From: Candidatus Woykebacteria bacterium RBG_13_40_15
Lineage (GTDB): Bacteria; Patescibacteriota; Microgenomatia; Woykebacterales; RBG-16-39-9b
Length of the DNA stretch: 64,000 nt
Reading direction: 5' to 3'
Assembly: GCA_001816655.1 (NCBI GenBank)
Contig: MHCP01000028.1
Location: forward strand, 30,309-94,308
Part shown: positions 1,527 to 58,774 of the stretch, piece by piece
Position numbering within the stretch: position 1 is the stretch's first letter
Layout: every line of letters begins with the position of its first letter
The notes under the pieces: model-generated
Told to the model about the DNA's origin: nothing
Seen by the model: the letters and a program-made list of their open reading frames with translations, nothing else
The model's database searches: none
Translations under genes and position numbers: made by a program

Positions 1527-1549
1527 TATTCTATCTTTCCTTTTTTAGT

Positions 1550-1699
1550 CCACTTTAGTGGTCGCCCGCCTGCCGCGCCCGACTTCGCTTCGCGAACTCG
1601 AAGCGGGCGAGCCAAAGACTGGCACTGTCGGGCAGGCAGAACTCGAGAGTACCTAAATTACTTTCGCGAAAGCGAACGAATTTAGTTACGGAGAGTTCT
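1550..1699 (+). repeat. structured intergenic repeat element, copy A (carries a 71-nt GC-rich hairpin insertion at 1566-1636)
   Basis: CCACTTTAGTGGTCGC...CAGAACTCGAGAGTACCTAAATTA-CTTTCGCGAAAG-CGAACGAATTTAGTTACGGAGAGTTCT. Outside the insertion it is identical to copy D (58688-58764, reverse complement) and homologous to copies B, C and E. Confidence 0.7.
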
Positions 1700-2338: not shown

Positions 2339-2656
2339 TCAATCCCCTTTCCTCACAACCAAATAACGAAGTAGCTCCTCCATTAATTTTAGTTTTGAGT
2401 TTAAAAAGTTTGGAATTTGACTTTCCGCGTTAAAGTTAACTAGCGTGTAAAACCCTTTTTCTTGATTTTTTATTTTGTAGGCTAGATCACGAGCGCCCCA
2501 AGGTTCCGCACTTACAATTTTCCCTTTTTTGCCTTCAATCAATTTCTTTATTTCGTCTAATGTGGTTTCACGGTTTGATTCGCTCAAATCAACCCTCAAA
2601 ACAACCATTAATTCGTATTCGCTTGTCATAACTCGCCCCAGTATAGCACACAGCAT
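2339..2656 (-). CDS. rpsF: 30S ribosomal protein S6
   Basis: YELMVVLRVDL...LIEGKKGKIVSAEPWGARDLAYKI is a typical S6 sequence. Operon context with ssb and rpsR. Confidence 0.9.
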   Translation of the reverse strand: MLCAILGRVMTSEYELMVVLRVDLSESNRETTLDEIKKLIEGKKGKIVSAEPWGARDLAYKIKNQEKGFYTLVNFNAESQIPNFLNSKLKLMEELLRYLVVRKGD

Positions 2657-2705
2657 TAAATCTAATCAAGGTTGCTGTGTGCTGCGTCACTTCGTTCCTA
2701 AGCAC

Positions 2706-2801
2706 ACTACGTAACAGAAATTCAAGAATTTTTAGATCGCTGCGCGCTCTGCGACCATTTTATGGACTTGGTACTCCCGCATACTGCAACCACTAAAGTG
2801 G
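2706..2801 (+). repeat. divergent copy E of the structured intergenic repeat (opposite orientation to A)
   Basis: ctacgtaacagaaattc...ttggtactcccgcatactgcaaccactaaagtgg aligns to copy D (ctccgtaactaaattc...ttaggtactctcgagttctgcgaccactaaagtgg). Its central hairpin region is expanded. Confidence 0.45.
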
Positions 2802-2867
2802 GCTAAACACAGGATCCAAGATCGCTTCAAGTAATTCCTCAACCACGTATAACTTCTATCTTAAAGC

Positions 2868-2900
2868 GAAAGAGGCCTCGGAAATTCCAAGGCCTCTTGA
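2868..2900 (-). terminator. GC-rich hairpin downstream of the island-1 ORF
   Basis: aagaggcctcggaaattccaaggcctctt is a perfect 9-bp stem just past the stop of the 2936..3295 (-) ORF. The U-tract is weak. Confidence 0.35.
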
Positions 2901-2935
2901 TTCATCGCTACTCCTCCCCACACACCCCATCTGCT

Positions 2936-3295
2936 CTAAGAAGGAGCGTGCCTAGCTCTATGGAAACCGCAGTTAAGGCAGGTGATACCGAGATCGTCTC
3001 CCCCCTTAACCAGGGATTCCTTTTTATTGCACTTGGGACATCTCACACTGATCAGCACTACTGGGCCTTGATGCCCTTTCGGCGGCATTTCGGAAAGGAC
3101 TTGTACCACTGTTGCCTTCTGGTTGAGCCTTCTCTCCAACCTCGCCGGATCTTTTTCACCCCCGTTCACAATTATCAGAATATCACCGCATATCCGGATT
3201 CTAGCCCTTCCTGGGAGTTTGATGAGTCTCGCCGCCGCTCTCGCTTCAGGCGTCAGCAGCAACAAACCACTTAACATCCTTGTATGGGATTCCAT
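2936..3295 (-). CDS. hypothetical zinc-ribbon protein (GC-rich island 1)
   Basis: 119-aa ORF with paired CxxC (CPKCNKK...CLNCG). High-GC codon usage unlike neighbouring genes. The opposite-strand ORF 2897..3274 is low-complexity and rejected. Confidence 0.45.
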   Translation of the reverse strand: MESHTRMLSGLLLLTPEARAAARLIKLPGRARIRICGDILIIVNGGEKDPARLERRLNQKATVVQVLSEMPPKGHQGPVVLISVRCPKCNKKESLVKGGDDLGITCLNCGFHRARHAPS

Positions 3296-3757
3296 GGCGC
3301 TCTCCTCATCCTGTAAACTTGGGCAACAAAAAACTCACCCGTAAGGGCGAGTCTTGTGTCGCTTATACCACCTTACTTTCCCGATCTGTTACCAAATCGG
3401 GACTATCTAGAACCTCTCGCCTCAAGACCGCTCAAGATTTATCCTGAGCTCACCGAAGGACAAGGTCCATCACGCTGTAACGGGCGCTCCCGGGAAAATC
3501 TATTTACCCACCGAAGCTTTGGCGAAGGCGGGCTTTCAATTCCCCTGCTCCGCAGTGAATGGTTGGGCTAGTCACCTGCCGGGCTTCCACCTTACCCCAG
3601 CTCTCTGTCAGGTTTTCAACACCAACCCCTTCTGCATCATGCGCATTTATCTATTTAATTCGTTTGTTAGTATAAGGAATTTATAACGGCGTGTCAAATG
3701 GGTGGGCAAGCGGCCTCTGCACATCGGTCGAGAGGCCGCTCAGTCTTGTCCAGTTCG

Positions 3758-4231
3758 TTACGCCACTTTGTCCCGCCAAAACCACAAGCCGTTGAACGTA
3801 TCGAGATACGCCTCGAAGATCTCGACGAGCATCCCTAGAGCCTCCTCAGACAGAAGATAGGCCTCGAGAGTCTCTGCCGCTAATAGCTGGAAGGAAACAA
3901 GACCATCGGAACCGCTGATCCTTGAAATAGTCAGCAGATCCTCCGACTGCAACCTCCTTAGATTTGCGAGCAGAAAACAGGCGATTGACACCGCCCTTGT
4001 CCTCTCATCACACCTCCCATCAACTGCACTGAGAACGAGCTTTTCGGCGATTTCCTCCGAAAGTCCGTTTGGCGCAATACGCTCAACTAACTCCTGTAGC
4101 TCTGGCAGCTGAAGCGACACCGCCTGAACGATTACGGGGAAGATTCTCTCCACTATCCATCCTTTCCGCCACCGCCTCTTCCCCACCGCAGCGCGTCGTA
4201 CAATGTTAACAAAAAATCGAACATTTTTCAA
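3758..4231 (-). CDS. hypothetical protein (GC-rich island 1)
   Basis: 157-aa ORF in a ~60% GC block. No recognisable domain. Confidence 0.4.
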   Translation of the reverse strand: MKNVRFFVNIVRRAAVGKRRWRKGWIVERIFPVIVQAVSLQLPELQELVERIAPNGLSEEIAEKLVLSAVDGRCDERTRAVSIACFLLANLRRLQSEDLLTISRISGSDGLVSFQLLAAETLEAYLLSEEALGMLVEIFEAYLDTFNGLWFWRDKVA

Positions 4232-4491
4232 CCCATAGCTTTGGCCCTAGTACATTGATGTTATACGAGAGAAACGATAGAATATCGATATGCTGAAGGT
4301 TGGAATTGTTGGGGCGTAACCGGAAAAAGTGAGGCTACCAGAATACCCTTTAAGTTCAAATTAAGAATCCCAAAAACCTAGAAAAGAAACCAGAATTATT
4401 GAAAGAGACTCTCTCGGAAGAGTTGTTACTAGTCGGCATCTTTAAAATACTCTTATCTCTCTAAATTTATGAGTAGGCCTACTCTTTTTGT

Positions 4492-15462: not shown

Positions 15463-15637
15463 CGCTATTACGGCAGCTGGCGTCTTAAAACTTGCAAAAA
15501 TACAAAGAGGAGACGGAAACTGAACGATTAGAGAATTTCCGAGGATGTCCCGAAGTATTTTTGCAAAGTTTTACAGCCAGCGAAGTTTAGCGGAAGTTTT
15601 GGTACCACCTTTCCAAAAAGGTGGTAAAAGTAGTTTA
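15463..15637 (+). ncRNA. candidate structured sRNA / repeat, copy 1 of a 2-copy family
   Basis: ~88% identical to 41758-41926. Long stem gctggcgtcttaaaacttgcaaaaata / tatttttgcaaagttttacagccagc. 3' hairpin ccacctttccaaaaaggtgg followed by an A/T-rich tail. Confidence 0.45.
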
Positions 15638-16081: not shown

Positions 16082-16129
16082 AAGCCCCCTTTTTATTTTA
16101 ATTTTGAATTTTAACTTTTGCCTTTTTAC

Positions 16130-16726
16130 TTAATACTCCATTCTCCCCTCAATCGCCCGACTAAGAGTCACTTCATCAGCATATTCTAGATCTGCCCCAA
16201 CTGGCAAACCACGAGCGATACGGGTGATTTTTATACCTAGGGGGGAAATTAGTTTTTGCAAATACATTGCCGTACTTTCACCCTCAACACTTGGATTGGT
16301 TGCCAAAATTATTTCTTTTATGGCGCCTTTTTTTAGTCTATTAAGTAGCTCTTTTATCCGAAGATGCTCTGGCCCAATCCCCTGCAGGGGCGCAATACAG
16401 CCGCCAAGAATATGGTAAAGCCCTCTGTAAGCGCGTGATTTTTCAAGGGCTGAAACATCCAATGGTTCCTCTACTATCATTATAGCGGACTTATCACGGC
16501 CTTCAGCACTACAGATTTCGCAAGGATTCACTTCCGTGATATTAAAACAAGTTTCACAAATTGTGGTTTTTTCTTTTAGATCAACTACTGCGCTAGCTAG
16601 TTGCGCGGCATACTCTTTTGGAGCATTCAATAAATGGTAGGTTAGTCGCTCTGCTGTCTTTGGACCAATACCGGGAAGTTTTTCAAATTCGACTATCACT
16701 GCCTCAACTGATTTTGGAATCCGCAT
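16130..16726 (-). CDS. recR: recombination protein RecR
   Basis: HhH GIGPKTAERL, C4 zinc finger CETCFNITEVNPCEIC, Toprim region. Confidence 0.9.
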   Translation of the reverse strand: MRIPKSVEAVIVEFEKLPGIGPKTAERLTYHLLNAPKEYAAQLASAVVDLKEKTTICETCFNITEVNPCEICSAEGRDKSAIMIVEEPLDVSALEKSRAYRGLYHILGGCIAPLQGIGPEHLRIKELLNRLKKGAIKEIILATNPSVEGESTAMYLQKLISPLGIKITRIARGLPVGADLEYADEVTLSRAIEGRMEY

Positions 16727-18689: not shown

Positions 18690-19049
18690 TTGATGACACC
18701 AGAGGAAGCCTTCGAACAAAAACTTAACGACGTTCCGATGACAGCAGAAGGAAAGGTTATTGAAGTCCTCCCCGATGACATCGGCGAAACCCCACATCAG
18801 CGATTTGTCATAAAACTTGATGCTGGAAACACAATTCTTATCGCCCATAACTTGGAGAGAGCTTATAGAGTACCGGTGAAGCTTGGCGATGAAGTAGAGG
18901 TTCATGGAACTTACAAGTGGAACAAATATGGTGGGCTAATCCACAAAACCCATCACGATGAGCGTGGTGAACACGAGGATGGTTGGATAAATTTAGTCGG
19001 AGTCCATCATCCAGACTTTACCAAACCAGTTGACGCAAAACTAGCTTAG
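18690..19049 (+). CDS. DUF3465-like protein
   Basis: HQRFVIKLDAGNTILIAHNLERAYRVP...HGTYKWNKYGGLIHKTHHDERGEHEDGW matches my recollection of the DUF3465 family. Confidence 0.55.
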   Translation: MMTPEEAFEQKLNDVPMTAEGKVIEVLPDDIGETPHQRFVIKLDAGNTILIAHNLERAYRVPVKLGDEVEVHGTYKWNKYGGLIHKTHHDERGEHEDGWINLVGVHHPDFTKPVDAKLA

Positions 19050-21224
19050 TTTTTTATTTTTCAACCTCTCAATTGCCTGCGAAAGCAACTGAACATATAA
19101 TTCAAACCCAATTAAGGCTATGTTGCCACTCTGGGCTGTTCCGAGCAAGTTACCGGCGCCGCGAATTTCGAGGTCGTGTTTTGCTATTTTAAAACCAGAC
19201 CCTAGCTCCGTACTTTCTGAAATCGCTGCTAATCTTTCCAAACTTTCACCCTCTGGTACATAATTTTTAGGATAAAAGAGATGGGCATAGGCGGCTCTGT
19301 CGGAACGCCCAACCCTACCACGCAGCTGATAAAGTTCTGACAGACCAAACGCTTGAGCATTTTCAATTATGATGGTGTTAACATTCGGCATGTCCAGCCC
19401 CGAACCAATAATCGTCGTACAAATTAGTACATCATATTTTTTCTCATAAAAGAGATCCATAACTTTTTCCAAACTTGTTACCTGCACCTTGTTACTTGTT
19501 ACTTTCCTCTCCATTTGTCCATGAGCAAAAGTAACTCTTGCAGAAGGAACAAGTTTTTGGATTTCTGCCGCTTTTGAGGCTATTTTTTGAACACTGTTAA
19601 AAACATAATAAACTTGCCCGCCTGCCATTGCCTGGCGGCGAAGCTCCTGGCGGGCAGGCCCGCCCCGGAAAATTTCTTTTTCGATTGCTAATTTAACTTT
19701 TTCTTCGTCAAATTCGCCGACCGAAGTTTCAATCGGCTTTCTACCGGCTGGTGCCTCACTCAAAACCGACATATCTCGCAAAGTAGTTAGCGCCAAATTT
19801 AAAGTTCGCGGTATTGGGGTTGCACTTATGGACAAAACATCCACTACGGGTTTTATGGTTTTTAATTTCTCTTTGTGCTTCACGCCAAAACGGTGCTCCT
19901 CATCAATTATCAAAAGCCCTAGATTTTTAAATTCCACGTCGTCACTGAGAAGTCTGTGAGTCCCTATAACAACATCAATTGATCCATCTTTCAGCCCACT
20001 GACAACGTCGACTTGTTTTTCTTTTTCTTCAAAGCGTGAAAGTTTTTCAATTCTTACTGGAAAGCCTTGTAATCTTTCTCGAAATAAATGGAGGTGCTGC
20101 TCTGCTAAAACTGTGGTTGGAACTAAAATTGCCGCTTGGCGACCAGCTTGAGCTACTTTAAATGTCGCTCTAATTGCCACCTCAGTCTTACCAAAACCAA
20201 CATCTCCAACTAAAACTCTATCCATTGGGTGATTGCTTTCCAAATCTGCTTTAATTTCCATCGCTGCTTTCAGCTGATCAGCCGTTTCTTCATATTCAAA
20301 GGCCTCTTCAAGTTGTTTTTGCCAAGGAGTATCAGTACCAACACCGACCCGTGTTGAAAGTTGCCTTTTTGCGTAAAGTTCAAGCAGTTCTTTTGCGTAT
20401 TCCGTAACACTTTCAGTGACTTTTTGCCTTGTCTTCTCCCAAGCGCCAGTCCCCAAGTATGAGAGTGGGACTTTTCTGCCACCAACTCCAATATATTTTG
20501 TAATCCGCTCGATTTGATCTACCGGCACGAAAAGTTTGTCACCCTTCGCGTATTCGACAATTAAATGCTGATTAGTCAGATTTGACTTTCTGCCAGTCTT
20601 TTCATCTGTTTGAGCCAAACCGTCATAAATTTCCTCATCTTGCAACGAAGCGAGACGACCCAATTTTTGAGGCTTCAATGGCACAAGCGACGAGGCGTCA
20701 CAGGTAAATCCAACCTTCCTTGATTCGCGCGGATTTGAAGCAGAAGAAAATTGTTGATCGTCGAGCTTCAAATTAGAAATCCCGATAAACCTCCCAACCC
20801 CATAATCTATATGAACGACCAAATCTCCAGGTTCTATTTCTGATAAAAATAGGCGAACCGAATTCCCTGATTGCAGAGGAAATTTCTTTTGTTTTGTCCA
20901 TTTCGGAGCGATTTTTGGCGTAATACCACAAGCGATTATATACACTTCTTTTAACCTTTTTATTATTCCTTGAGTAAAAATATTGAACATGTAAATATTT
21001 TCAACCTGCTCACCAATTAAGTCGATTCTCACCGGAATTTTGTATCTTTCCAACCAAATATCAATTAAGCCGCCGCGTTTAGAAAACTCCCCGGCTTTTG
21101 CAATCGTACCGGGAGAAATATTTTCGTATCCTAAATTCGTTAATTTAGCTGCAAGAACAGTAGGCGAAACTTTGTCACACAAAGCAATATTTAAACCTGT
21201 TTCATTATATTGATCCATAATCAT
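19041..21224 (-). CDS. mfd: transcription-repair coupling factor Mfd (N-terminally truncated form)
   Basis: SF2 helicase motifs (DEEHRFGV), C-terminal TRCF signature EIRGAGNLLGTAQSG...GFELY. At 727 aa it lacks the UvrB-homology N-terminal modules. Confidence 0.8.
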   Translation of the reverse strand: MIMDQYNETGLNIALCDKVSPTVLAAKLTNLGYENISPGTIAKAGEFSKRGGLIDIWLERYKIPVRIDLIGEQVENIYMFNIFTQGIIKRLKEVYIIACGITPKIAPKWTKQKKFPLQSGNSVRLFLSEIEPGDLVVHIDYGVGRFIGISNLKLDDQQFSSASNPRESRKVGFTCDASSLVPLKPQKLGRLASLQDEEIYDGLAQTDEKTGRKSNLTNQHLIVEYAKGDKLFVPVDQIERITKYIGVGGRKVPLSYLGTGAWEKTRQKVTESVTEYAKELLELYAKRQLSTRVGVGTDTPWQKQLEEAFEYEETADQLKAAMEIKADLESNHPMDRVLVGDVGFGKTEVAIRATFKVAQAGRQAAILVPTTVLAEQHLHLFRERLQGFPVRIEKLSRFEEKEKQVDVVSGLKDGSIDVVIGTHRLLSDDVEFKNLGLLIIDEEHRFGVKHKEKLKTIKPVVDVLSISATPIPRTLNLALTTLRDMSVLSEAPAGRKPIETSVGEFDEEKVKLAIEKEIFRGGPARQELRRQAMAGGQVYYVFNSVQKIASKAAEIQKLVPSARVTFAHGQMERKVTSNKVQVTSLEKVMDLFYEKKYDVLICTTIIGSGLDMPNVNTIIIENAQAFGLSELYQLRGRVGRSDRAAYAHLFYPKNYVPEGESLERLAAISESTELGSGFKIAKHDLEIRGAGNLLGTAQSGNIALIGFELYVQLLSQAIERLKNKKLS

Positions 21225-31556: not shown

Positions 31557-31854
31557 ATCTTCGATAGGCTTCTACGTTTGTGGTAGCAGAAAGTACTTTT
31601 GCGGCCTCGATTGATTCAAGTTTTCTAGCCTCGGGAATATAAAGGAGGGTTTCATCAATTTCCTTCCGGGGCACGTCGAAATAAGTAAGTATAGCGTCGG
31701 TAATATTATCCGCAAGCTGAACAACACTAGCGGCCTGTGTATGACACCCTGGAAGTTCTGGAAAAGTAGCGTAAAAACCACCTTCCGGCACTCGTTGGAT
31801 TTTAACCAGGACTCTTTTAGGTAGTTTGTACTTCTCGACAATATTTTTTGACAT
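31540..31854 (-). CDS. hicB: HicB-family antitoxin (UPF0150)
   Basis: FYATFPELPGCHTQAASVVQLADNITDAI matches the HicB/UPF0150 core. Confidence 0.6.
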   Translation of the reverse strand: MSKNIVEKYKLPKRVLVKIQRVPEGGFYATFPELPGCHTQAASVVQLADNITDAILTYFDVPRKEIDETLLYIPEARKLESIEAAKVLSATTNVEAYRRCAVTC

Positions 31855-35875: not shown

Positions 35876-36340
35876 TTATTTTAATTGATCTGAGAGCGAA
35901 AAGCGAGATATTCTCTTGACCTGAATATTTTCTCCGGTTTTTGCGATTACTTCAGCGACCAAATCAGTGATCTTTTTTTCGCTATCGCGTATGTACTCTT
36001 GATCGAGAAGTTCTTCAACGCTCTGTGGATCCATTGCTGCAACTTGCATTGCGAGTTCGCGTGCTAAGGTTTTAAATTCGTCGGTTCTGGCGACAAAATC
36101 TGTCTCACAAGCCAAATGAACCATCGCCCCTACTCTTGCATCGGAATGAATGTAGGATTCGATAATACCTTGGGCTGTTTCACGCTCTGCTCGCTTTTCG
36201 ACTTTTTCGAGACCTTTTTGTTTCAAAATTTCTTTAGCTTCTTTGACGTTGCCGTCAGTTTCCATCAAAGCCCGTCTTATTTCCATTACTGGCGCTCCTG
36301 TTTCTTCCCTCAAGTTTTTTACTTCTGCTGCTGTTACCAT
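35876..36340 (-). CDS. tsf: elongation factor Ts (short form)
   Basis: N-terminal UBA-like VKNLREETGAPVMEIRRAL. Adjacent to rpsB. Confidence 0.85.
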   Translation of the reverse strand: MVTAAEVKNLREETGAPVMEIRRALMETDGNVKEAKEILKQKGLEKVEKRAERETAQGIIESYIHSDARVGAMVHLACETDFVARTDEFKTLARELAMQVAAMDPQSVEELLDQEYIRDSEKKITDLVAEVIAKTGENIQVKRISRFSLSDQLK

Positions 36341-36372
36341 AAACCTCCTATTGTTAGTAAAAATTTCCTAGC

Positions 36373-36450
36373 CCACGTTAGTGGTCGCAGCTTTCGAAAG
36401 TACCCAAATTACTTTTGCGATTAGCAAACGAATTTGGTTACGGAGAATGC
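36373..36450 (+). repeat. structured intergenic repeat element, copy B (between rpsB and tsf)
   Basis: CCACGTTAGTGGTCGCAG-CTTTC-GAAAGTACCCAAATTA-hairpin-CGAATTTGGTTACGGAGAATGC. Stems covary relative to copies A and C. Confidence 0.65.
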
Positions 36451-37202
36451 TATACTTTTGCTTCCTCGGCTACTTTCTTTACTTCTGCAACCTTTTCTTT
36501 CTTTTCGTGAAGGCTTCTGCCCTCTTTATAAAAGAGGGCGATTGTTTTAACAAGCAAAGAAACCGACTTTACAGAATCATCATTAGCGGCAACGGGATAA
36601 TTTACCTTTGTCGGATCCCCATTTGTATCGACCAAAGCAACGATTGGAATACCCATTTTATTTGCCTCACGAACCGCATTATCTTCTCTCTTGGCATCAA
36701 TAATAAAAAGGCAATCTGGAAGACGGTCCAAGCTCCTTATACCACCTAAAACTCGTATTAATTTGTCAATTTCCCGCTGCATAAGAAGCTGCTCTTTTTT
36801 TGTGTAGCGTCCCTCTGCAGTTTTTAACTCTTCCTCTAGATTTCCTAGTTTTTCGATTGTTTTTTTAACAGAATCAAAATTGGTTAAAAGCCCACCAAAC
36901 CAACGCTCCGTAAGAAACATTGCACCAGCTTCTTTTGCAGCCCCTTCTACAATCTCAGAAAGCTGCCTTTTGGTCGAAAGAAATAAAACAACGCCGCCAC
37001 GACTTGCTACTTCTTTTATAAATTCTGCCGCCCTCTCTAGTTGCTTTTCAGTTTTTTCTAAATCAATAATGTGGATACCAGATTGCTGGCCAAAAATATA
37101 TGGACTCATTTTTGGATTCCATCTTTTCGATTGATGGCCGAAATGAGCACCAGAATCAAGTAATTCTTCCATTGAAGGTAACTTTGCCATAATGACTCGC
37201 AC
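36450..37202 (-). CDS. rpsB: 30S ribosomal protein S2
   Basis: LLDSGAHFGHQSKRWNPKM... Confidence 0.9.
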   Translation of the reverse strand: MRVIMAKLPSMEELLDSGAHFGHQSKRWNPKMSPYIFGQQSGIHIIDLEKTEKQLERAAEFIKEVASRGGVVLFLSTKRQLSEIVEGAAKEAGAMFLTERWFGGLLTNFDSVKKTIEKLGNLEEELKTAEGRYTKKEQLLMQREIDKLIRVLGGIRSLDRLPDCLFIIDAKREDNAVREANKMGIPIVALVDTNGDPTKVNYPVAANDDSVKSVSLLVKTIALFYKEGRSLHEKKEKVAEVKKVAEEAKV

Positions 37203-37746: not shown

Positions 37747-39219
37747 TTATAGCTCGCGCGGGCCATCATAATACTTCCAAAGAAGTGGATGGGCTTTTTC
37801 CGCGAGTTTAAACGCTTTTAGAATTGGCCGTTGGATACGATAGTGAGCACCGGCTCGCGTCCGAAGCCTAAATAAGTGATATGCTTCACGAAGATTAAAC
37901 TCTACCAACATTGGACGTATATGAGCACGAGTTAAAAGGTAATGCGCTGAGAAAGGAAATTTTTTCTCTATTTTATGATATGCAGCATCAACTTTTTTAA
38001 TAACCTCTCTAAAACGTTCTTCCCATCCCATTTCTCCAAATAAATCAGGAATTACGTAACCATAGTCTACAGACGGTGATTTCGTTAGGTAACTTTGTAT
38101 CCTATGTCTCTTGTATTCCCGGACAGTTCCGTAGTCAAAATCAAATTCAAAAAGATAGTAGGTTGCAAATTCTAGATCGCGAATAGTGGGATCATGATAT
38201 TTTTTTCCGGAAAGCGCTTTCTTGATTATTCTTTCTTTTTGCGTCTTTGATAACCTCCTTACTTTATTCTTTATTGATTCGTAACTTGCTTTTGAGTCAG
38301 CGTAAAGAAACGCTGATACAAATCTATCTTCTGCATCTTTGTCATAAGATAATAATTTAACAGCGGTTTCACTGCCCTTGATGACTAATTTTGGAGTGCT
38401 GAAACTTTTTGCTAGTTTTTCCCGAGTTTTGTCAACCTCGGACAAATAAGGGTTGTGGTCGGCGAATCTTACCAAGGTTGGAGTAATTTGGATAGCTTGT
38501 TTTTTTAGTATTTTACCTACTTCGATTGCCTCTTCGTAAGGAGAAGAAAGCAACTTTCTAAGCATATGTTCCATCGTTCGGGCATTTGCAGTCACACCAA
38601 CATTCGATAATCTCCCTGTGGTATGTAAAAATCTTGCATTGTCAGTAACTATTTTTTTAAGTCTTGCTAAATATCCTTTGTCAGTTTCGTTAGGTTTCAT
38701 TTTGCGTTCTGGAAATTTTTTAAGCGATTCTTCGCTTTTTATATATTCGAGTCCAGCTCCGACAAATTTTTCATAAGATTCAAAAAGCATATTTTGCGTC
38801 TCGCGATACAATTTGAGTAACTTTTTGTCTTTTTTGATATCTTTAGGGGTGTAGAAGTATCCAGGAGCGATTACTTGATATCGGGCTGACTGTTCCGTAA
38901 AAGAAGCTAGGCGATTATCGGTAACTTCATCAACTACAAGTGATGAAATACCCTCGCAAGCCAGATGATGAATCGCATGTTCAGCGACTGAGGAATGTCC
39001 ATAACCTTCTACAGAGGCTACCCACCTCTCATGAAAGTTGGCCGCTCCTTCTTCAGTCACTTCTTTTGCCATTTCATCAAAAGGGTTTGGAGACCTAGAG
39101 GTTCTTGCAAAAACGACTGCAATTTCCTCTTCTGTCAGTAATTCGTTTTTTGTCAGCCCTAAATCTTTTTTAATCTGGCCTGTCACGCCCATTGGGTAAA
39201 TTCTTCTTTTGTATTTCAT
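37747..39219 (-). CDS. thyX: flavin-dependent thymidylate synthase ThyX (tandem-domain long form)
   Basis: ThyX-like serine motif region ...FTEQSARY, second RHR-containing segment (YKRHRIQS), and C-terminal ...FRLRTRAGAHYRIQ. At 490 aa it is about twice a single ThyX. Confidence 0.65.
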   Translation of the reverse strand: MKYKRRIYPMGVTGQIKKDLGLTKNELLTEEEIAVVFARTSRSPNPFDEMAKEVTEEGAANFHERWVASVEGYGHSSVAEHAIHHLACEGISSLVVDEVTDNRLASFTEQSARYQVIAPGYFYTPKDIKKDKKLLKLYRETQNMLFESYEKFVGAGLEYIKSEESLKKFPERKMKPNETDKGYLARLKKIVTDNARFLHTTGRLSNVGVTANARTMEHMLRKLLSSPYEEAIEVGKILKKQAIQITPTLVRFADHNPYLSEVDKTREKLAKSFSTPKLVIKGSETAVKLLSYDKDAEDRFVSAFLYADSKASYESIKNKVRRLSKTQKERIIKKALSGKKYHDPTIRDLEFATYYLFEFDFDYGTVREYKRHRIQSYLTKSPSVDYGYVIPDLFGEMGWEERFREVIKKVDAAYHKIEKKFPFSAHYLLTRAHIRPMLVEFNLREAYHLFRLRTRAGAHYRIQRPILKAFKLAEKAHPLLWKYYDGPREL

Positions 39220-39279: not shown

Positions 39280-39822
39280 TCAGACTTGTTTTTCTTCCTT
39301 CTCCGTTGTCACCCGACCGCCTTGCCACTGACCGCGGTACATCGAACCTTTACCAGCTACTTCCCAAAATATAATGTGTAGTATTCTAGCTCCAAGTTCC
39401 ACAGTAAAATCCGCATTTCCCATATTTTTTAGGCCCACATTCAAGGGGCCTTTGTAACCTGGGGCAATTTGAGTGGTCAGAAGCCATACACCCGAACGCA
39501 GAAGTGTTGATCTTGGATGCATTGTAGCAACTAAGTAATCCGGAAGGTTAACATTTTCCACTGTCTGAACCAAATAAAATTCACCAGGTTTAACTGTAAA
39601 AGAAGTTTTCTTTTTCGGATCATATTTTGCAACGGAAGTGTGACTGACTGTTTTTCTTTTTTCTTCGCCGAGAAAAGTCTCTCCCTCTATTTTGAAAATT
39701 TCACCAAGCCGAAGATCCAAACCGGCACCCTCAGGATTTTCTAAATCCCGCTGCCCCAAATCCTCGACAAGATGGGTTTTTTTAATTAACTTTTTAATTT
39801 TGTCTACACCTAATGCTCCCAT
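39280..39822 (-). CDS. dCTP deaminase/dUTPase-superfamily protein (paralog 3)
   Basis: HPRSTLLRSGVW...APGYKGPLNVGL matches the RSxxxRxG...DPGxxG pattern of the Dcd/Dut fold. Confidence 0.6.
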   Translation of the reverse strand: MGALGVDKIKKLIKKTHLVEDLGQRDLENPEGAGLDLRLGEIFKIEGETFLGEEKRKTVSHTSVAKYDPKKKTSFTVKPGEFYLVQTVENVNLPDYLVATMHPRSTLLRSGVWLLTTQIAPGYKGPLNVGLKNMGNADFTVELGARILHIIFWEVAGKGSMYRGQWQGGRVTTEKEEKQV

Positions 39823-39838
39823 ATTTTTAATTCGTAGC

Positions 39839-39915
39839 CCACTTAAGTGGTCGCAGTATCCAAGAGTACCTAAATAATCAAGGATTATCGAAGATTATTT
39901 TGTTACGTAGGATAC
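39839..39915 (+). repeat. structured intergenic repeat element, copy C
   Basis: CCACTTAAGTGGTCGCAG-TATCC-AAGAGTACCTAAATAA-hairpin-TTTGTTACGTAGGATAC. The outer stem TATCC/GGATA covaries with AACTC/GAGTT in copy A. Confidence 0.6.
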
Positions 39916-39938
39916 TATCAACCAACACCTAAAGCCAT

Positions 39939-41757: not shown

Positions 41758-41926
41758 CGCTATTATGTAGCTGGCGTCTTAAAACTTGCAAAAATGTGAG
41801 AGAAACGGAAACTGACCGAAGAGAATTTCCGAGGCTCCCGAAACATTTTTGTTTAGTTTTACAGCCAGCGAAGTTTAGCGGAAGTTTTGGTACCACCTTT
41901 CCAAAAAGGTGGTAATAAAGATTTTA
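41758..41926 (+). ncRNA. candidate structured sRNA / repeat, copy 2
   Basis: Paralog of 15463-15637 with compensatory changes in the long stem (aaaaatgt/acattttt vs aaaaata/tattttt). Identical 3' hairpin ggtaccacctttccaaaaaggtggtaa. Confidence 0.45.
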
Positions 41927-58657: not shown

Positions 58658-58687
58658 TTCGATCTAAGATTTAAGATGTAAGATATA

Positions 58688-58764
58688 GAACTCTCCGTAA
58701 CTAAATTCGTTCGCTTTCGCGAAAGTAATTTAGGTACTCTCGAGTTCTGCGACCACTAAAGTGG
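58688..58764 (-). repeat. structured intergenic repeat element, copy D (canonical, uninterrupted)
   Basis: The reverse complement is identical to copy A with the 71-nt insertion removed. It lies just upstream of the ATG at 58775. Confidence 0.7.
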
Positions 58765-58774
58765 CCTAAAGATT

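Follow-up and report, generated by a model that had tools for sequence, protein, structure and literature searches.

We identified five copies of a short hairpin-forming element in a 64-kb stretch of DNA (the window) from the CPR bacterium Candidatus Woykebacteria RBG_13_40_15. The family is probably a lineage-specific, non-autonomous hairpin transposon of the REP/IS200-IS605-like kind, so far seen only in Woykebacteria. Judging from sequence comparison, the elements behave as small mobile DNA insertions and not as a conserved regulatory RNA. The finding is a variation on known kinds of mobile hairpin, not a new class of RNA. CPR bacteria have very small, compact genomes in which mobile DNA is usually thought to be scarce. 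In this one, a hairpin element has been active enough to interrupt the overlap of rpsB with tsf, a promoter and several gene starts. Such insertions have evidently been tolerated, through a re-made stop codon or a duplicated start or promoter.

All five copies were present where the original prediction had placed them, and all five aligned. The 3′ motif CTGCGACCACTNANGTGG had six matches in the window at up to three mismatches, against 0.17 expected. Five of these were the element copies, and the sixth, a three-mismatch match at 31572-31589, was taken as chance. The ends given earlier were shifted, since comparison of filled with empty or uninterrupted sites placed the true ends at 5′-AG...CTA-3′. 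The “T” of an apparently conserved TAG is the target base and lies outside the element. With these ends (Table 1), full copies measured 81-83 nt and mini forms 25-38 nt. Copies A to D were read in the direction of their neighbouring genes. A and D, which had been called identical except for an insert in A, were nearly so, differing additionally in one base (GTGGACTA vs GTGGCCTA). These two copies are young and near-identical, unlike B and C, which have diverged. B lies at rpsB/tsf and A at ssb/rpsR, as described earlier, and E lies in the spacer of a promoter. Copy E is divergent, as had been claimed, though it sits in the old rpsF promoter and not in an RNA leader, and it carries a nested mini copy.

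Table 1. Element copies, nested hairpins and associated sites, in window coordinates.
Feature	Position	Strand	Context
Copy A	1546-1699	-	ssb/rpsR junction; full element plus nested GC hairpin
GC-rich nested insertion “G” (CCTGCC...GGCAGGCGG(G))	1566-1636	-	in copy A at CTG^CGACC
Rebuilt rpsF promoter, TTGATT-18-TATACT	2640-2669	-	gene-proximal side of copy E
Copy E	2701-2805	+	decayed full copy, antisense to rpsF, in spacer of ancestral rpsF promoter
Mini copy, 35 nt	2734-2768	+	P1 hairpin, CTGCGA and P3; inserted in copy E immediately ahead of GGTAC
Orphaned ancestral rpsF -35 (TTGAAG)	2825-2830	-	now ~150 nt from rpsF
Empty site	16093-16133	.	plain 40-nt spacer; orthologous junction in L008 holds antisense copy
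GC hairpin relative, 42 nt (CCTGCC...GGCAGGCGGG)	19617-19658	-	in frame in mfd (TRCF), ORF 19041-21224
Copy B	36369-36451	-	rpsB/tsf junction
dcd3 interrupted copy, remainder: CGAATTAAAAAT	39823-39834	-	working dcd3 ATG directly after, at 39822
Copy C	39835-39916	-	after codon 6-7 of ancestral dcd3 start
dcd3 duplicated start, gene-distal interrupted copy, 5′ part: ATGGCTTTAGGTGTTGGTTGAT	39917-39938	-	
Copy D	58687-58768	+	ends 6 nt 5′ of ATG, Ig-domain surface protein gene

On the sense strand, the intact copies fold into a long imperfect hairpin followed by a small one, P3. The long hairpin has an outer stem (P1) of five freely covarying pairs and an inner stem (P2) with a variable tip, separated by a pyrimidine-rich internal loop. 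The 3′ part of the element consists of the joint CUGCGA, then P3 (4-5 bp; CCAC-N4-GUGG in the window copies) and the tail GCUA. Fold z-scores against shuffled sequences ranged from -2.1 to -4.2 in copies A to D, whereas copy E folded no better than its shuffles. Runs of a TAAGAT-like hexamer (e.g. CTAAGATTTAAGATGTAAGAT) adjoin element copies in the spacers of three genomes (window 58660-58685, L008 6025-6060 and L013 7040-7070).

About 30 further copies were found in related genomes and metagenomes. When one genome per species was scanned with an exact pattern, the element was detected only in Candidatus Woykebacteria GWB1_45_5, and a pattern scan of metagenomes added 19 loci. A search with Tsf assigned the window itself to RBG_13_40_15. 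The strict pattern had no match in viral contigs; a single match with a looser pattern, inside a GC-rich phage ORF, was dismissed as chance. Searching with a covariance model built on the family, as had been proposed, recovered further diverged copies in relatives. A diverged copy at L009 6770-6860 (-) ends ~15 nt before the 5′ end of an apparent tRNA gene (GGCCCGTAGTTAAATGG...).

The claim that stem substitutions preserve pairing was confirmed on an alignment of 20 distinct copies from several genomes. Standard pairs were formed by 94.3% of the stem cells, compared with 29-42% when the partners were slid by one to three columns, and changes on both sides were seen in 10 of 22 pairs, a level reached by none of 500 shuffles. 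The test was not circular, because the search pattern had placed no constraint on the variable segments of P1 and P2. Diverged copies show covariation in P3 as well, with CCGAG/CUCGG in place of CCAC/GUGG in one copy and CCAU/AUGG in two, and a second subfamily has GUAGCU/AGCUAC at the base of P2. Covariation had been offered as the hallmark of a selected structure. It does indicate a selected fold, but it does not point to RNA in particular, since a folded DNA strand yields the same signal. The antisense strand was the more stable one in 23 of 27 copies, by a mean of 3.1 kcal/mol, and as it folds at least as well as the sense strand, the stems do not single out a transcribed RNA. A strand test combining wobble pairs with fold energy, tried as a discriminator between RNA and DNA, gave no decision, the antisense strand being somewhat more stable.

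Orthologous neighbourhoods were compared with those of the closest relative, a single contig (L023 and L026) with ~80-87% nucleotide identity to the window. In this relative, no element occupies the sites of A, B, C or E. The ssb-rpsR spacer occupied by copy A is empty in both L026 and L027, so that copy A is a recent insertion. At the copy B site in L023, rpsB and tsf overlap (GTATGA); at the copy C site the second and third dcd genes abut; and the copy E site in L026 is an intact rpsF promoter, TTGAAG-18-TATACT. The window holds five copies in 64 kb, against one in ~41 kb of the closest relative, and one of its own spacers is an empty site (Table 1). Such presence and absence at orthologous junctions argues for a mobile element rather than a fixed regulatory site. 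Of the three original suggestions, this distribution bears out the REP/MITE-like mobile element with a favoured point of insertion, as do exact insertion after WAT, nesting and the near-identity of A and D.

The target lies directly 3′ of a T, with the consensus WAT^ and an A-rich right side. Over 24 loci, position -1 was T in 22, position -2 was A in 21 and position -3 was A or T in 21. At three independent loci (dcd3, the L003 gene and thyA), joining the two flanks rebuilt the uninterrupted reference. The joined flanks of copy C read GTTGAT|CGAATTAAAAA, matching the uninterrupted L023 gene; the local alignment covers 27 nt, with 23 identical, and all 17 nt spanning the junction are identical. 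The corresponding joins were identical at 24 of 24 positions for the L003 gene and at 23 of 24 for thyA. Target duplication is absent, and insertion at the three reconstituted loci was base-exact and in one step.

These junctions make a classical MITE, moved by a DDE transposase and having terminal inverted repeats (TIRs) with a short (TA) or long target duplication, extremely unlikely. The ends TAG...CTA do resemble a 3-nt inverted repeat flanked by TA, but a TA duplication of the IS630 or Correia-like kind cannot have occurred at dcd3 (GAT|CGA). At thyA and the L003 gene it predicts both flanks wrongly, and the model without duplication is exact. Direct repeats of 24-33 nt at the flanks at first resembled long target duplications (~30 nt). 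However, the empty L023 site shows a tandem duplication with the element inside one of its copies, so that the repeats do not flank the element. An apparent duplication at L022b was an unrelated local repeat. P1 and P3 each covary internally and not with one another, and thus conserved TIRs are lacking.

About 75-80% of the copies are co-oriented with the flanking genes; L008, L021, L016b and E are antisense. Their positions include junctions of co-directional genes, gene starts and, in one case, a promoter. An element that starts with AG and inserts behind a T will, on hitting the first base of a stop codon, restore the stop as TAG, and the upstream ORF ends in a junction TAG at five copies. 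The rpsB gene at copy B is one of them: the insertion splits the ancestral overlapping stop/start GTATGA, and the target T with the element's AG forms the present rpsB stop.

The positions just described could also suit a cis-acting RNA inside operons, either a processing or stability site or a translation-coupling or attenuator element for the downstream gene. Most copies run with transcription and end 3-28 nt 5′ of a start codon, several of them without a Shine-Dalgarno sequence. In addition, the stems covary, and the orthologous copies C and L006 retain the fold with different P1 sequences. We nevertheless regard such a role as unlikely. The same housekeeping junctions lack the element in the closest relative, and antisense copies occur at the four loci named above. 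The antisense strand folds better in most copies, there is nothing common among the flanking genes, and the element is without a relative in Rfam. Decay points the same way. In L024, the orthologue of copy C has acquired, in the P2 tip, a mini copy of 38 nt together with other insertions, and P3 is broken in the orthologue of copy B. A locus-specific function is argued against by the fact that individual copies are not kept intact at orthologous loci.

A scan of the window at Rfam gathering scores gave no match to the element, and a lax scan of copy D gave only chance-level matches (E about 1 to 10), with no ribozyme or leader among them; no tRNA or tmRNA was found. By eye, no consistent -35/-10 pair was seen within the element. 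An RNA effect on coupling or stability may occur as a by-product but is unlikely to be the reason for the family. The earlier proposals of an RNA processing or attenuator element and of an antisense sRNA family are not supported, given the empty operon junctions of the closest relative, the decay and the occurrence of both orientations. For annotation, it matters that copies give rise to spurious short ORFs and pseudo-starts and could be mistaken for riboswitch-like leaders.

Copies also land in the loops of one another. Besides the mini copy in E and the insertions in L024, L013b is located in the apparent remains of an older copy, and L012 has a solo 3′ module of 25 nt. Copy A carries an insertion of a separate kind. 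The original prediction described it as a perfect hairpin of 71 nt; it was right in recognising a nested insert, which is a separate tiny hairpin insertion, but the 71 nt alone gave a fold z-score of only -1.2. They consist instead of a GC hairpin of ~33 nt carrying a palindrome of ~38 nt at about 1574-1611, which makes copy A three insertions deep. Whether the insert also occurs independently had been raised as a check, and it does: 26 of its 71 nt recur exactly in an element copy of a different genome. A search for its arms (CCTGCC...GGCAGGCGG) recovered versions of 20-33 nt at the same CTG^CGACC site in L016b, L025b and L009b. In L024 the GC hairpin has the opposite orientation and lies at a different point of the element copy, and in L011 it is free-standing.

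A further relative lies within a protein-coding gene of the window, mfd, where the 14 residues that it contributes (GPARQELRRQAMAG) fall between conserved motifs; the L008 orthologue is without them. The same gene has its CarD/TRCF RID domain split into two Pfam stretches by ~60-70 extra residues (window 20549-20759 (-)). This segment may be another in-frame insertion, and has no obvious hairpin.

Three genes (dcd3, the L003 gene and thyA) have a tandem duplication of their first 29-53 nt, start codon included. The element lies within the upstream copy of the duplicated start, the rest of that copy comes next, and the working ATG follows. At rpsF the duplicated signal is a promoter, and the ancestral -35 has been left on the far side of copy E (Table 1). 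We suggest that insertions into essential signals would persist, and hence be seen, only beside a local duplication that restores the start or the promoter. Slippage at the hairpin may favour such a duplication. Insertions that simply reverted would look like empty sites and so escape notice. The effects of the element on its host look incidental.

Copies might mark the borders of gene-sized segments exchanged between lineages, in which case the element would be a recombination site or a portable homology patch, acting as an attC-like site-specific system or through plain identity. Between the window and L024, nucleotide identity jumps from ~70% in dcd2 to 85-97% over the stretch that runs from element C to the end of dcd3 (39280-39868), where L024 has another copy. 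A weaker rise, to ~80%, was seen just downstream of element B over most of tsf (35970-36385), the neighbouring genes being at ~68-72%. Likewise, L003 and L010 have the element and the downstream gene in common, with different upstream genes. We consider this explanation improbable. The cases number only two or three, the element inserts alone and base-exactly in many places, and the genes concerned belong to the core genome rather than to cassettes. The end motifs of attC sites (RYYYAAC / GTTRRRY) are absent, and the tracts may simply be element-bearing alleles spread by ordinary recombination. The identity pattern suggests that element-bearing alleles were transferred between lineages, and copies may mark or help recombination between them. 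If the homology-patch reading is true, the elements would be agents of gene exchange in ultra-small genomes.

We return to the preferred reading, a non-autonomous hairpin transposon. Transposition as a single strand fits the family because of its exact ends, short 5′ target, lack of duplication, hairpins in place of TIRs, preference for loops and strand bias. The element would move by the “peel-and-paste” chemistry of HUH (Y1) enzymes, which is used by IS200/IS605 and has been proposed for REP/RAYT. Under this model the hairpins and conserved joints would be the recognition sites of an enzyme supplied in trans, and the stems would covary because the strand that moves has to fold. The manner in which REP-like repeats spread is unsettled even in model bacteria. 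The base-exact filled and empty sites, the clear WAT^ target and the minimal units represented by the mini forms could guide biochemistry.

A candidate enzyme was sought in ~0.3 Mb of the sequence analysed. A tblastn search with an IS200 TnpA query gave nothing credible. Its sole match (E = 0.002) was spurious, lying antisense within ychF. Scanning the same ~0.3 Mb for the HUH...Y motif gave no match and revealed no RAYT gene, nor did the Pfam annotations of five 20-kb neighbourhoods include one. This is weak evidence against the model, since the enzyme could be encoded at any place in the genome. We considered L012, in which an element is followed by a 399-aa ORF and a 3′ module, as an autonomous copy. 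The ORF, however, has a motif like that of HExxH metalloproteases (by eye) and its own promoter and terminator, and the 3′ module is the 25-nt solo mini copy.

Spread through RNA, in which a co-transcribed hairpin RNA would be reverse-transcribed and inserted, is very unlikely. The orientation bias does follow transcription, and the structured unit has the size of a tRNA or SINE-like element, but we found no target duplication, no tail and no series of 5′ truncations. The ends are exact, and no reverse transcriptase is present in the annotated neighbourhoods. It is conceivable, though rather unlikely, that the element and the GC hairpins riding on it are moved by structure-guided machinery that is neither IS200/IS605 nor RAYT and leaves no target-site duplication, which would be of a new kind in CPR bacteria; alternatively or additionally, the copies could serve as homology patches for single-gene swaps among Woykebacteria diverged by 30%.

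Our literature search found nothing on such repeats in Woykebacteria or CPR. The element was compared with systems described elsewhere. It resembles REPs, BIMEs and REPINs in being a short, high-copy, extragenic and non-autonomous hairpin with compensatory stem changes, and it shares with REPs and REPINs the arrangement of two inverted “head + hairpin” units per element. REPs are defined by a conserved GTAG tetranucleotide directly 5′ of a palindrome, and in group 3 REPs a TAG-type head stands beside a small palindrome, with RAYTs cutting at a CT dinucleotide (PMC8266576). The antisense 3′ module of the element, NTAG-C-CCAC-N4-GTGG, is likewise a TAG head with a palindrome, as in group 3 REPs, and the antisense strand ends in CT, the dinucleotide cut by RAYTs (PMC8266576). 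TAG is invariant by P3 (antisense) and T^AG by P1 (sense), but unlike the GTAG of REPs the first base of the head is derived from the flank and is variable. The P1/P2 hairpin and the small P3 are very unequal and fold separately, whereas REPIN arms are similar and pair together. REPs lie mainly at 3′ ends, whereas the element is found at junctions of co-directional genes, at gene starts and within a promoter. RAYT-associated REPs share a genome with their RAYT (Y1 HUH) gene, which they usually flank. A further difference from REP/RAYT systems is that the host is a CPR bacterium in which the ~0.3 Mb searched contained no RAYT.

With IS200/IS605 elements and their MITE-like derivatives, the PATEs, the family has in common insertion 3′ of a short specific target without duplication, exact ends, subterminal hairpins rather than TIRs and a strand-specific orientation. 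It differs from IS200/IS605 in that the target is only 2-3 nt (WAT), that the left and right hairpins are dissimilar whereas IS200/IS605 ends resemble each other, and that no associated tnpA or tnpB was seen in the sequence analysed. In IS200/IS605 a guide tetranucleotide stands 5′ of each hairpin. Here the left hairpin starts at base 1-3, which leaves no room for an internal left guide, and the guide/cleavage layout of IS608 does not fit. Correia, ERIC, BOX and RUP elements are similar in that they are ~100 nt long, are co-transcribed with their neighbours, form hairpins and can alter promoters and junctions. They have, however, conserved TIRs and target duplications of TA or other sequence, and duplication is excluded here.

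Integron attC sites (e.g. the VCRs of Vibrio) are likewise structured imperfect palindromes between co-oriented genes, with structure more conserved than sequence, and recognition as a folded single strand would be a further point in common. The element has CCGTAAC...GGTACTC, the second motif of which does not fit GTTRRRY. No cassette array or integrase accompanies it, and it moves alone, dispersed among core genes. The GC hairpin is comparable to the Rickettsia palindromic elements in lying in frame within a protein gene (mfd, 14 residues), but it is much shorter (20-42 nt), GC-rich and mostly nested at one site of the element. The unusual features of the system are its three-deep nesting, the in-frame hairpins in a protein gene and the rescue duplications.

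Several other features of the window were recorded. With 64.7 bits (E about 1e-13), a T-box leader-like RNA at 3340-3650 (-) fell short of the Rfam cut-off, which is 93. Its AGAGA and GGUGGUA boxes are present, and it contains two large insertions, one of which (GCCCGCCUUCGCCAAAGC...) resembles the GC hairpin family. It lies in a 1.4-kb stretch (2850-4250) of 50-55% GC without a convincing ORF, which is absent from L026 and L027. A 119-aa ORF downstream of the T-box-like RNA had no Pfam match. A non-coding sequence of ~155 nt is present in two copies, 90-100% identical, at 15473-15627 and 41767-41915 (+). Each copy ends in a GGTACCACCTTT-CCAA-AAAGGTGGTA hairpin and has no Rfam match, and the pair could represent either a small RNA gene that has been duplicated or a separate family of repeats. 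At 37747-39219 (-) the window has thyX (Thy1) and an unknown 118-aa ORF where L023, L024 and L025 have thyA-folA. The dcd3/thyA junction holds an element copy in two of these three relatives.
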